Assembly (NCBI GenBank): GCA_016218975.1
Contig: JACRCO010000053.1
Span: 15,523-79,522, forward strand
DNA: 64,000 bases
Source of the DNA: Deltaproteobacteria bacterium
GTDB taxonomy: Bacteria > Desulfobacterota > Deferrimicrobia > Deferrimicrobiales > Deferrimicrobiaceae
Direction of reading: 5' to 3'
Shown: positions 19,396 to 64,000 of the stretch, piece after piece
Numbering within the stretch: position 1 is the first letter of the stretch
Layout of the letters: each line of letters opens with the position of its first letter
Program-made: the position numbers and the translations under genes
The notes under the pieces: generated by a model
What the model saw: only the letters and a program-made list of their open reading frames with translations
Databases searched by the model: none
Told to the model about the DNA's origin: nothing

Positions 19396-19417
19396 TTCTC
19401 CTCCTTCAGTTCTCCGG

Positions 19418-19500
19418 CAGCCCGGCCGTCCTTGCCTAACGCAAGCACCCGTTGGCTTTGTGCCCCCGCCTTGCGACAGGTTTACCTTTTTCGGAGGAGT
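19418..19500 (-). promoter_or_regulatory. GEMM-I (c-di-GMP/cGAMP class) riboswitch candidate in the omcS-like leader
   Basis: Minus-sense GGUAAACC-UGUC[GCAA]GGCGGG-GGCACAAAGCC aligns with the GEMM-I P1 (GNRA tetraloop) and the conserved GGGACGCAAAGCC region. A P2 hairpin GCUUGC-GUUAG-GCAAG follows. The RBS follows directly. Confidence 0.65.
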
Positions 19501-36383: not shown

Positions 36384-37301
36384 CTAATCCTTCAGGTCTC
36401 CCACCTGGAAAACCTGGACGCGCTCCGCCCCTTTCTCGAGGACGAAGAGCTCCCCTTTCTCGCCGAAACAGAGATCGACCGGAAAGAAGAACCCCCCGCT
36501 TTCGGTCGTCTCTTCCAGCCGCCCGAAGTTGAAAAGGAACTCTCCTTCCGCGGAGAACACCTTCAGCCGGTGCTGGAACGGGTCGGCGATCCAGAGCCGG
36601 CCCTTCGCGTCGGATGCGAACCCGGTCGGAAACGACATGTTCCTGTCCGACTTGTCGCCATGGTCTCCGAAGGAACGCAGGAGCTTGCCGCCGTCGTCGA
36701 AGAGCTGCACCGCCTTCCCCTGTGCGCTGACGCCCACGATACGCCCGCCGCTTTCCCTCCCGGCTTTCTGGAGGTAATCGAACTTTCCCATCGACCGGAT
36801 AAAATCTCCCCGCGAGGACAAGAGAAGGATTTCATTGCCGTCCAGGTCGGCGACATAAACCCGGTCGTCCCTGCCAAGCGTGATCCGGCCGGGTGAAACC
36901 TTGCGGCCCGCCGCATGGGCGAGGTCTATTTCGTCGGAGATCGCCCCCCCCGGACTGAAGATCTTCAGCAGGCCGGTCCGCACCTCGCTGACGTAGATCC
37001 GGCCCGCGTTGTCCAGCGCAACGCCGTACGGCGTGACCAGGCCCGCATCCGCGCCCATCCTCTTGACGATAGACCCGGCTTTGTCGAGGATGACTACCTC
37101 GCCGGACTCGAAGCTCGAAACGATCAGTTCCCCGCTTTTTCCGTCCCGGACGATCGCGAGAGGGCTCCTCAACGCCCGCTCTCCACCCTCATCCTTGAAG
37201 ACGGCGATCCGCCGGATCTCGGGAGCCATGACCTGCGCGAACCCCGGATGCGCGGCAAAAAGCAAGTTCAAACCCGCTGCTGCGAGCAGGATCCGCACCA
37301 T
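36384..37301 (-). CDS. NHL-repeat protein, secreted
   Basis: ORF trimmed to ATG 37301 (MVRILLAAAGLNLLFAAHPGFAQ). NHL-like blades (GRIYVSEVRTGLLKIF, DRVYVADLDGNEILLL, GRLWIADPFQHRLKVF). Confidence 0.8.
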   Translation of the reverse strand: MVRILLAAAGLNLLFAAHPGFAQVMAPEIRRIAVFKDEGGERALRSPLAIVRDGKSGELIVSSFESGEVVILDKAGSIVKRMGADAGLVTPYGVALDNAGRIYVSEVRTGLLKIFSPGGAISDEIDLAHAAGRKVSPGRITLGRDDRVYVADLDGNEILLLSSRGDFIRSMGKFDYLQKAGRESGGRIVGVSAQGKAVQLFDDGGKLLRSFGDHGDKSDRNMSFPTGFASDAKGRLWIADPFQHRLKVFSAEGEFLFNFGRLEETTESGGFFFPVDLCFGEKGELFVLEKGAERVQVFQVGDLKD

Positions 37302-43536: not shown

Positions 43537-43556
43537 TGCATCCTCCGAAGTTTTCT

Positions 43557-43640
43557 CTGGCGGCCCGGCCGTCCTTCCATCGAAGGATCCGTGGGCTTTG
43601 CGTCCCCCGATTACTCGAGGTTTGCCTTTTTCAGAGGATT
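43557..43640 (-). promoter_or_regulatory. GEMM-I (c-di-GMP/cGAMP class) riboswitch candidate in the leader of the family-B hexaheme gene
   Basis: Minus-sense GGCAAACC-UCGA[GUAA]UCGGGG-GACGCAAAGCC aligns base-for-base with the Vc2-type GEMM-I P1 and core. P2 hairpin UCCUUC-GAUG-GAAGGA covaries with the 19418..19500 copy. The P1 overlaps the stop codon of the upstream NHL gene. Confidence 0.7.
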
Positions 43641-63115: not shown

Positions 63116-63652
63116 ATGAAAAAATCATCCATACTGTTGGCCGTGACGGCGGCCGTCGTCCTTATCGCCGCCTTCCTCTGGTACCGCGGCAGGCCGGTCG
63201 CGCCGGGCGGCGGGACGGCATCTCCGCCGGCGGCTTCCGTCGACCGTATCGCGCCCCCGTTTACGTTGAGCGACATAAGCGGCAACAACGTCTCTTCCTC
63301 GCAGTTCCTCGGGAAACCCACAGTCATAAACTTCTTCGCGACATGGTGCCCCCCCTGCCGCGAAGAGATCCCGGGCTTCGTGGAAATCTACAAAAAGTAC
63401 AAGAACAGCGGATTCGAGCTTGTGGGGATCGCCCTCGACACCGACACAAGGTCGACGCTTCCCCAGTTCCTTGTACAGAACAGGATCGAATACCGGATCC
63501 TCATCGGCGACGTGGCGGCCGTCAGGGCATACGGCGGCGTCCGCTCCATCCCCACCACCTTTTTCGTAGGCAAGGACGGCAAGATCCGCAATGTCCACGT
63601 CGGTTATATCGACAAGGACTCCTTCGAACGGGAAGTCCGGAAGCTCCTGTAA
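63116..63652 (+). CDS. TlpA/ResA-family thiol:disulfide oxidoreductase (thioredoxin fold, membrane-anchored)
   Basis: N-terminal TM anchor, INFFATWCPPCREE (WCxxC), FELVGIALD, IPTTFFVGKDGKI. Confidence 0.85.
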   Translation: MKKSSILLAVTAAVVLIAAFLWYRGRPVAPGGGTASPPAASVDRIAPPFTLSDISGNNVSSSQFLGKPTVINFFATWCPPCREEIPGFVEIYKKYKNSGFELVGIALDTDTRSTLPQFLVQNRIEYRILIGDVAAVRAYGGVRSIPTTFFVGKDGKIRNVHVGYIDKDSFEREVRKLL

Positions 63653-63653
63653 C

Positions 63654-63790
63654 CTTAGAAACAGGGGACGTTCCCGTACTTAAAAACGGGGACGTTCCTG
63701 AACTTTTTCTGACGTGTGATAAAAAAAAGTTCAGGAACGTCCCCGTTTTTAAGTACGGGAACGTCCCCTGCTTCTAAGAACGTCCCCTGC
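63654..63790. repeat. Near-perfect ~55-bp-arm inverted repeat (hairpin) containing GGGGACGTTCC unit repeats, between convergent genes
   Basis: Left arm 63655..63709, loop tgacgtgtgat, right arm 63721..63778 (54 of 55 bp match). Each arm carries two GGGGACGTTCC(C/T)G units. A third GAACGTCCCCTG copy lies at 63779..63790. Confidence 0.8.
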
Positions 63791-63839
63791 CGGGTGCTGC
63801 GGGCGGCTTCTTCGCCCTTTGCGGAATGCGGGTAACCCG

Positions 63840-64000
63840 CTACGCCGGAACGCACGCAGCGGTGGGACACACCCCTGCGCAAGCGGCGCAATCGGTGCAC
63901 TTGCCCGCATCGATCGTGTAAATGGGGTCCCCCTCCGAAATGCACTGGGCGGGGCACTCCGGAACGCACGCGCCGCAAGCGATGCATTCCTCGGTTATTT
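63840..64000 (-). CDS. 2x[4Fe-4S] ferredoxin, C-terminal part only (5' end beyond window)
   Basis: Minus frame reads ...ITEECIACGACVPECPAQCISEGDPIYTIDAGKCTDCAACAGVCPTAACVPA*, two CxxCxxCxxxCP motifs, stop at 63840. Not in the ORF track (no in-window start). Confidence 0.6.
   Translation of the reverse strand, partial: ITEECIACGACVPECPAQCISEGDPIYTIDAGKCTDCAACAGVCPTAACVPA

Follow-up and report, generated by a model that had tools for sequence, protein, structure and literature searches.

The tlpA–ferredoxin gap and its palindrome

Near the right end of the window (the whole 64-kb stretch of DNA analysed here), two genes converge: a gene for a TlpA-family thiol-disulfide reductase on the + strand (63116–63652), an ORF identified through its homologues and Pfam redoxin/thioredoxin domains, and on the − strand the 3′ part of a gene for a small 2×[4Fe-4S] ferredoxin (63840–64000), recognized by frame translation and by orthologues with Fer4 Pfam domains, which continues past the window end. 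The ferredoxin stop codon occupies 63840–63842, so the gap between the two genes is 63653–63839 (187 nt). Within it lies a 137-bp element (63654–63790), with the tlpA stop codon ending 1 nt ahead of it. The initial annotation had this element filling the entire gap; in fact it takes up only the left 137 nt, and the 49 nt beyond it (63791–63839, 69% GC) are unrelated GC-rich sequence, of which the last ∼25 nt align with the relative L031. The palindrome has no coding capacity, and the ORFs that cross it, at 63343–63777 (+) and 63655–63987 (−), are only spurious palindromic read-throughs.

The left arm of the palindrome (63654–63708, +) consists of two tandem 24-nt units, AAACAGGGGACGTTCCCGTACTT and AAAACGGGGACGTTCCTGAACTT, with CTTAG ahead of them (TRF period 24, 2.1 copies), and contains two exact copies of an 11-nt core, GGGGACGTTCC, the outer at 63664–63674 and the inner at 63688–63698. 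After a 15-nt spacer, CTGACGTGTGATAAA (63709–63723), the right arm (63724–63778, −) follows as the reverse complement of the left arm at 54 of 55 positions, bearing two further exact core copies in inverted orientation (inner, 63734–63744; outer, 63758–63768). By repeat search the arms are thus 98% complementary, the sole mismatch setting A63661 against the partner of 63771. Outside the palindrome lies a truncated fifth copy, GAACGTCCCCTGC (63777–63790, −), which repeats 63759–63771 at a 19-nt offset and whose core carries one mismatch. The earlier description of an inverted repeat with 55-nt arms, each made of two repeated units and accompanied by an extra copy on the right flank, is thereby borne out, as is its exclusion of a CRISPR array, since the 24-nt units abut without spacers and the arms are mutually inverted.

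At both ends of the palindrome the GGGG side of the core points outward. The palindrome is the only inverted repeat with arms of at least 22 nt in the 64-kb window and contains all of the window’s exact core copies; six matches with one mismatch lie outside it, within the chance range (shuffles: mean 3.4, maximum 8). At 47% GC, compared to 60% in the window, the element falls at the 3rd percentile. Other signals in the window include a second 24-nt tandem repeat at 36428–36473 (unit CCCCTTTCTCGACGAAAAAGAGCT; 1.9 copies, 77% matches), whose sequence bears no relation to that of the element, and two c-di-GMP-I riboswitch aptamers on the − strand, one at 43556–43636 (62.2 bits against an Rfam gathering threshold of 35) and one of the GGC variant at 19412–19495 (60.8 bits against a threshold of 59).

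Predicted folds and terminator-like halves

As RNA, the palindrome is predicted to fold at −104 kcal/mol (+ strand) or −111 kcal/mol (− strand), with z about −16 to −17, and as single-stranded DNA at −67 kcal/mol (z −17); none of 200 shuffles folds as well. Single units fold weakly (−4.3 to −4.8 kcal/mol, z −0.5 to −0.8). No Rfam family matches the palindrome at gathering score. Sub-threshold matches to microRNA precursor models (MIR7696, mir-515, mir-368, and others) appear on both strands across 63662–63770, with E-values down to 1e-10; these are an artefact and a trap for automated annotation, because any long perfect hairpin causes such matches.

Each arm taken alone forms a 14-bp hairpin, because the quasi-palindromic core pairs unit 1 with unit 2. 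The spacer and arm ends contribute T-runs, T5 on the + strand (63704–63708) and T8 on the − strand (63721–63728). Scanning accordingly finds one terminator-like half-element per strand: for tlpA transcripts, a 14-bp hairpin followed by GAAC and U5 (63664–63708, +; −27.1 kcal/mol, z −5.45), and for ferredoxin/nifU transcripts, a 14-bp hairpin followed by GAAC and U8 (63721–63768, −; −26.7 kcal/mol, z −5.33), with the U-tract beginning 4 nt past the stem in both. With a hairpin and a U-tract on both strands, the element plausibly terminates or stabilizes both convergent transcripts. From these predicted structures we infer that it probably serves today as a bidirectional terminator or 3′-end hairpin, transcribed from both sides.

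Orthologous gaps in relatives

We compared six orthologous loci (L031, L032, L166, L170, L171, and L174) whose TlpA proteins are 68–80% identical to that of the window and which have in common the gene order nifS, rubrerythrin-like gene, tlpA (+), ferredoxin (−), nifU (−). More distant TlpA homologues bear the name Candidatus Deferrimicrobiaceae. The element is absent from all six tlpA–ferredoxin gaps, and ∼92 kb of DNA from the relatives contains no tandem or palindromic core copies. In L032, L166, and L170 the two stop codons are only 7–10 nt apart. The gaps of L031, L171, and L174 measure 94–136 nt and hold a conserved GC-rich hairpin, GGGAGGCGAAA-loop-TTTCGCCTCCC (3818–3855 in L031), which is unrelated to the element and presumably represents an ancestral bidirectional terminator; the element of the window plausibly replaces this hairpin in the terminator role.

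Absence from the orthologous sites, together with anomalous GC content, marks the element as a lineage-specific gain. At the relatives’ 68–80% protein identity the exact excision or insertion junction is unreadable from these empty sites, and the comparison is best explained if the element entered or expanded in the tlpA–ferredoxin gap after the split from the nearest sampled relatives.

The core motif in other genomes

Searching one genome per species for a pair of direct cores spaced by 24 nt retrieved 30 loci from unrelated phyla, and a metagenome scan with free spacing (period 12–42 nt) retrieved at least 120 loci from many phyla. The tandem arrangement of these comparison loci is imposed by the search pattern itself, and part of the core matches are plain coding repeats, such as those with 12- or 15-nt periods in GC-rich ORFs; in GC-rich DNA, long open frames do not reliably separate coding from non-coding arrays, and such a sorting was left unused. 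The periods spread evenly over 12–42 nt with no peak, so the 24-nt period of the window’s element is not a family feature. A recurring feature among the matches listed is local duplication of the core along with a stretch of its own flank. Truncated outer copies in the window and in L052 had suggested that duplication or cleavage takes place at a set point in the core, but the junction phases are scattered across 164 adjacent core pairs and lend this idea no support.

The decisive property is one that the search pattern does not force, the polarity of the inverted partner. Among the matches listed, an inverted core with at most one mismatch lies within 300 nt downstream in 43 of 153 arrays and upstream in a single one, compared to a chance estimate of ∼0.4 per side (34 of 4^11 words, 300 positions, 153 arrays). 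This asymmetry indicates a fixed family polarity, with GGGG outward, and the element of the window is built alike. The ∼35 independent palindromic members have a median arm of 27 nt, and the window’s arms (55–59 nt) are the second longest. Across ∼180 fetched loci, no match to the flanks of the window’s units extends beyond the core plus a few bases.

The ends of these elements vary in form. Two-part ends are common, in which an outer GGGGACGTTCCC(C) is followed by a short linker and an inner GGGGACACCC (or GGTACCACC), mirrored on the opposite side (L036, L055, L064, L074, L117, L124, L148, and others); the window’s element has the outer motif alone, without the inner one. A truncated outermost right-end copy, starting with AACGTCCC straight after the preceding unit, is seen both in the window (63772–63790) and in L052 (380–470).

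In Collinsella (L001, L002, L004, L006, L012, L013, L015, L017, L023, L025, and L026), an array of two to three copies of GGCACTTGGGGACGTTCCTTTTGT followed by GGGACACTCC lies ∼100 nt upstream of an adenine deaminase gene. Its conservation extends to at least 11 species-level genomes, where another single core lies ∼3 kb downstream; since the array matches the left end of the transposase element of L068, it resembles a solo end that has become fixed in a promoter region. This single conserved locus dominates the clustering of neighbour genes in the genome collection, among whose motif loci no common neighbour gene was found. Viral contigs gave zero matches to the two-core pattern, use of the element’s translation as a protein query for miscalled ORFs on sibling copies gave zero candidates, and the literature contains the core sequence only as incidental primer or oligonucleotide matches.

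Y1 transposase genes bounded by the core

Downstream of several core arrays we noted an ORF whose product starts MPRKARID..GALHHIIVRG. When all fetched loci were searched with an iterated HMM, Y1_Tnp ORFs were identified in 10 motif-selected metagenome loci and none in the 64-kb window. In 9 of these 10 loci the direct array lies 30–180 nt upstream of the transposase, in the orientation of the gene. Inverted core copies are present past the transposase stop codon in L052, L063, L068, L075, L090, and L141. The exact core flanks the Y1_Tnp genes in those six loci and in three others selected by protein (L157, L158, and L161). Among the loci with the core, a Y1 transposase is the only neighbouring gene in common. 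The likeness of the window’s element to these transposase-linked arrays consists of the 11-nt search core and the architecture only.

The transposases score 39–55 bits against Pfam PF01797 (Y1_Tnp; cut-off 23). Their best NCBIfam model is NF047646 (REP-associated tyrosine transposase), at 53–70 bits and thus under its equivalog cut-off of 80 bits, and the IS200 model, at 21 bits, scores far below this. Their sequences contain the HUH motif (as HVH, HLH, or HFH) and a YIxxNP tyrosine motif. There are >8,000 homologues, which sources name RayT, some with a C-terminal PF08299 extension. The transposases occur in several contexts and contigs in an IS-like manner.

As a check on the bias of a motif-first search, we also picked loci by protein similarity alone. 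Four homologues 69–85% identical to the L063 query, P0176 (from the complete genome of Desulfosarcina ovata), P0137, P0225, and P0218, all carry GGGGACG[TC][TC]C at a distance of exactly 58 nt from the ATG, on its upstream side; in P0176 two direct core copies lie upstream and an inverted copy lies 17 nt past the stop codon. Two copies of P0137 (L158 and L161) share identical transposase genes and right-hand neighbours and differ in their left-hand neighbours, and their sequences converge exactly at TAGGGGACGTTCC, at about position 1940. This convergence suggests an element boundary, with rearrangement or insertion at the motif. Divergent homologues on plasmids (∼30–36% identical) have a like layout with variant cores (GGGGACAG and GGGGTCAG). 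A Pseudomonas aeruginosa plasmid homologue has three copies of AAAGGGGACAGAT and an inverted copy past the stop codon, a Sporomusa homologue has cores GGGGTCAGGCC and GGCCTGACCCC, and an Acetoanaerobium homologue has two copies of AGGGACGGTTC, while one Collinsella plasmid copy has no obvious core layout.

Comparison with known systems

The closest parallel is with the TIRtrons. Di Nocera, De Gregorio and Rocco (2013, PMC3733652) describe many RAYT-like genes as bounded by terminal inverted repeats (TIRs) rather than by GTAG REPs; such units are termed TIRtrons and their enzymes TIRYTs (TIR-associated tyrosine transposases). A GGGGWSAS motif is common to many, though not all, of the published TIRs, and TIRs are also reported as orphans, whether single, in dimers, or in clusters; their numbers are low to moderate and the set of genomes is limited. 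Our fetched loci agree in having a RAYT-like Y1/HUH gene between inverted repeats that start with GGGG, and the head-to-head arrangement and polarity of the window’s element are those of the ends of an autonomous element. The variant cores of related loci, GGGGACAG and GGGGTCAG, and the inner GGGGACAC fit GGGGWSAS, whereas the window core GGGGACGT fits it at six of eight positions, having G and T at positions 7–8 in place of A and S. The window’s element differs further in its lack of the inner GGGGACAC motif, in its two to three tandem subterminal copies per end, and in the absence of a cognate TIRYT gene from the 64-kb window; moreover, the TIRtron paper, as far as consulted, makes no mention of local tandem multiplication with a variable period or of a wide cross-phylum spread of this exact core.

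REPINs and BIMEs offer a second comparison. Like them, the window’s element joins two inverted units into one long hairpin and is intergenic, located past a stop codon between convergent genes, and non-autonomous. Here too the enzyme involved is a Y1 tyrosine transposase, best matched in NCBIfam by the RAYT model. Unlike them, it has no GTAG adjoining any unit, the conserved tetranucleotide at one unit end by which REPs are defined (PMC3733652), and its single units are not real palindromes, whereas a REP unit is a 20–40 nt imperfect palindrome. The transposases also stand apart, scoring under the RAYT equivalog cut-off, carrying a C-terminal extension, and occurring in several contexts in an IS-like manner. 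There is one locus in 64 kb, compared to hundreds of REPINs or BIMEs per genome; among the RAYTs, highly abundant flanking repeats are confined to Groups 2 and 3, those of Groups 1 and 4 being low-copy (Bertels et al. 2017, PMC5581495), so the low density in the window is not unusual for RAYT relatives. We also considered the CGTC-tagged REPs, which the TIRtron paper describes as having an 8–9 bp stem opening with A/T pairs, a 4–5 nt loop, a CGTC tag, a CCA tail, and no transposase. The reverse strand of the core does contain CGTC, but the units lack this stem, loop, and tail structure, and we rejected the assignment.

With MITEs such as Correia/NEMIS, RUP, and ERIC, the element has in common that it is intergenic and non-coding and has terminal inverted repeats; its 137 bp fall within the 70–300 bp size range of MITEs, its arms measure 55 nt, and empty sites are present in related genomes (the six orthologous gaps). 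As with MITEs, a folded transcript could influence neighbouring mRNAs. Classical MITEs are derived from DDE-transposase IS elements and have target-site duplications alongside, whereas the enzyme of the related autonomous elements here is of the Y1 HUH type, and the palindrome has no more than an ambiguous AAC repeat of 3 nt beside it. This AAC (63651–63653 and 63779–63781), expected by chance at ∼1 in 64 and on the right also belonging to the fifth copy, is the sole candidate for a target-site signature at the palindrome, where no clear one was found.

The element resembles rho-independent bidirectional terminators in its position between convergent genes and in having, on each strand, a predicted GC-containing hairpin with a U-tract 4 nt past the stem. 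It departs from them in its 55-bp stem of repeated units and in the placing of its U-tracts, which fall within the loop of the full palindrome and not behind its stem.

Interpretation

Three options had been offered for the element: a strong bidirectional terminator, a small MITE/REP-like element, or a protein-binding array. Of these, the second has the most support, because the same core, polarity, and tandem duplication are found at the ends of Y1 transposase elements and because the element is absent from the orthologous sites; terminator activity is compatible with it as a secondary, current function. More specifically, the reading we favour, and consider probable, is that the element is a gene-less TIR dimer, MITE- or REPIN-like, in which TIRtron-type Y1 ends are set head to head, and that it probably acts as a bidirectional terminator. 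TIRtron-type TIR repeats are already known, and the element would join that class. Behind this reading stand the structure of the element, its absence from the orthologous sites, and the occurrence of its core and polarity both at the ends of Y1 genes and in gene-less palindromes elsewhere.

The main competitor holds that the palindrome is simply a bidirectional intrinsic terminator without a mobile-element origin, formed at this site through local duplication and inversion, and that the shared 11-mer is a coincidence. Several features of the locus speak for it: the position between convergent genes, starting 1 nt past the tlpA stop codon; a 14-bp hairpin in each arm, with U5 or U8 behind it; the hairpin terminator in the equivalent gap of three relatives; and the single copy in 64 kb. 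Yet a near-perfect 55-bp stem far exceeds what termination needs, the relatives’ hairpin is unrelated in sequence, the GC content of the element is anomalous, and five copies of an 11-mer that marks Y1-element ends, with matching polarity, would be a remarkable coincidence. We therefore regard an origin purely as a terminator as unlikely.

A protein-binding array, for instance an operator or iteron-like array recognized by some regulator of the neighbouring Fe–S cluster genes (nifS, nifU, and ferredoxin), would account for five 11-mer copies, direct and inverted, at a regular 24-nt spacing, and the Collinsella arrays do lie upstream of a gene. The element of the window, however, is located at the 3′ ends of both flanking genes rather than in a promoter position and is not conserved, being absent from six syntenic loci with the same Fe–S genes; nor do the core loci share any neighbour gene apart from the Y1 transposase. 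An operator-type array is accordingly very unlikely. An assembly artefact, that is, a chimeric fold-back, comes to mind because the source is a MAG and the arms are nearly perfect, but on either side the DNA is collinear with that of six relatives assembled independently, the palindrome lies internally and is short, its extra fifth copy and one arm mismatch make it asymmetric, and equivalent elements are present in many independent assemblies, including one complete genome. We give such an artefact hardly any credence.

Returning to the gene-less TIR dimer, we infer that the window copy derives from a Y1 transposase element and is mobilized by such a transposase through a single-strand hairpin mechanism. 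Its ends would correspond to two direct subterminal motif copies on the left and, on the right, to two inverted ones followed by a third that is truncated, and no more than 15 nt would be left of the internal region between the TIRtron ends. What is established for IS200/IS605 and RAYT enzymes suggests, by analogy, that a Y1 HUH transposase provided in trans would handle the element as single-stranded DNA, recognizing the motif or the hairpin and cutting and rejoining via a 5′-phosphotyrosine link; the core motif is, on the same analogy, the presumed recognition sequence of the transposase. The 55-bp fold-back would form readily on the lagging-strand template.

A broader proposal is that elements of the GGGGACGTTCC type constitute a still-active, cross-phylum TIRYT transposon family whose end motif multiplies by local tandem duplication and whose gene-less dimers are mobilized in trans as REPINs are. 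We put this forward tentatively, as a doubtful extension of the reading above.

Significance

For the genome itself the consequences are modest: on the favoured reading, an odd 137-bp palindrome is explained as mobile-element debris that is probably the 3′-end hairpin of two Fe–S/redox genes, and annotators are warned against ORF or microRNA-like RNA calls at it. For the TIRtron/TIRYT class, which is published but little studied, the loci reported here contribute one exact 11-nt end motif found across many phyla with strict polarity, for which full elements, solo ends, and gene-less dimers are all easily found. Together with enzymes such as P0176 of Desulfosarcina ovata, GGGGACGTTCC provides test material for end recognition by RAYT-like enzymes without GTAG REPs, and a single exact end motif that combines strict polarity with tandem multiplication may deserve a systematic census. 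If the broader proposal is true, these elements would amount to a second REPIN-like system, independent of GTAG-tagged repeats, from which hosts repeatedly obtain ready-made bidirectional terminators.
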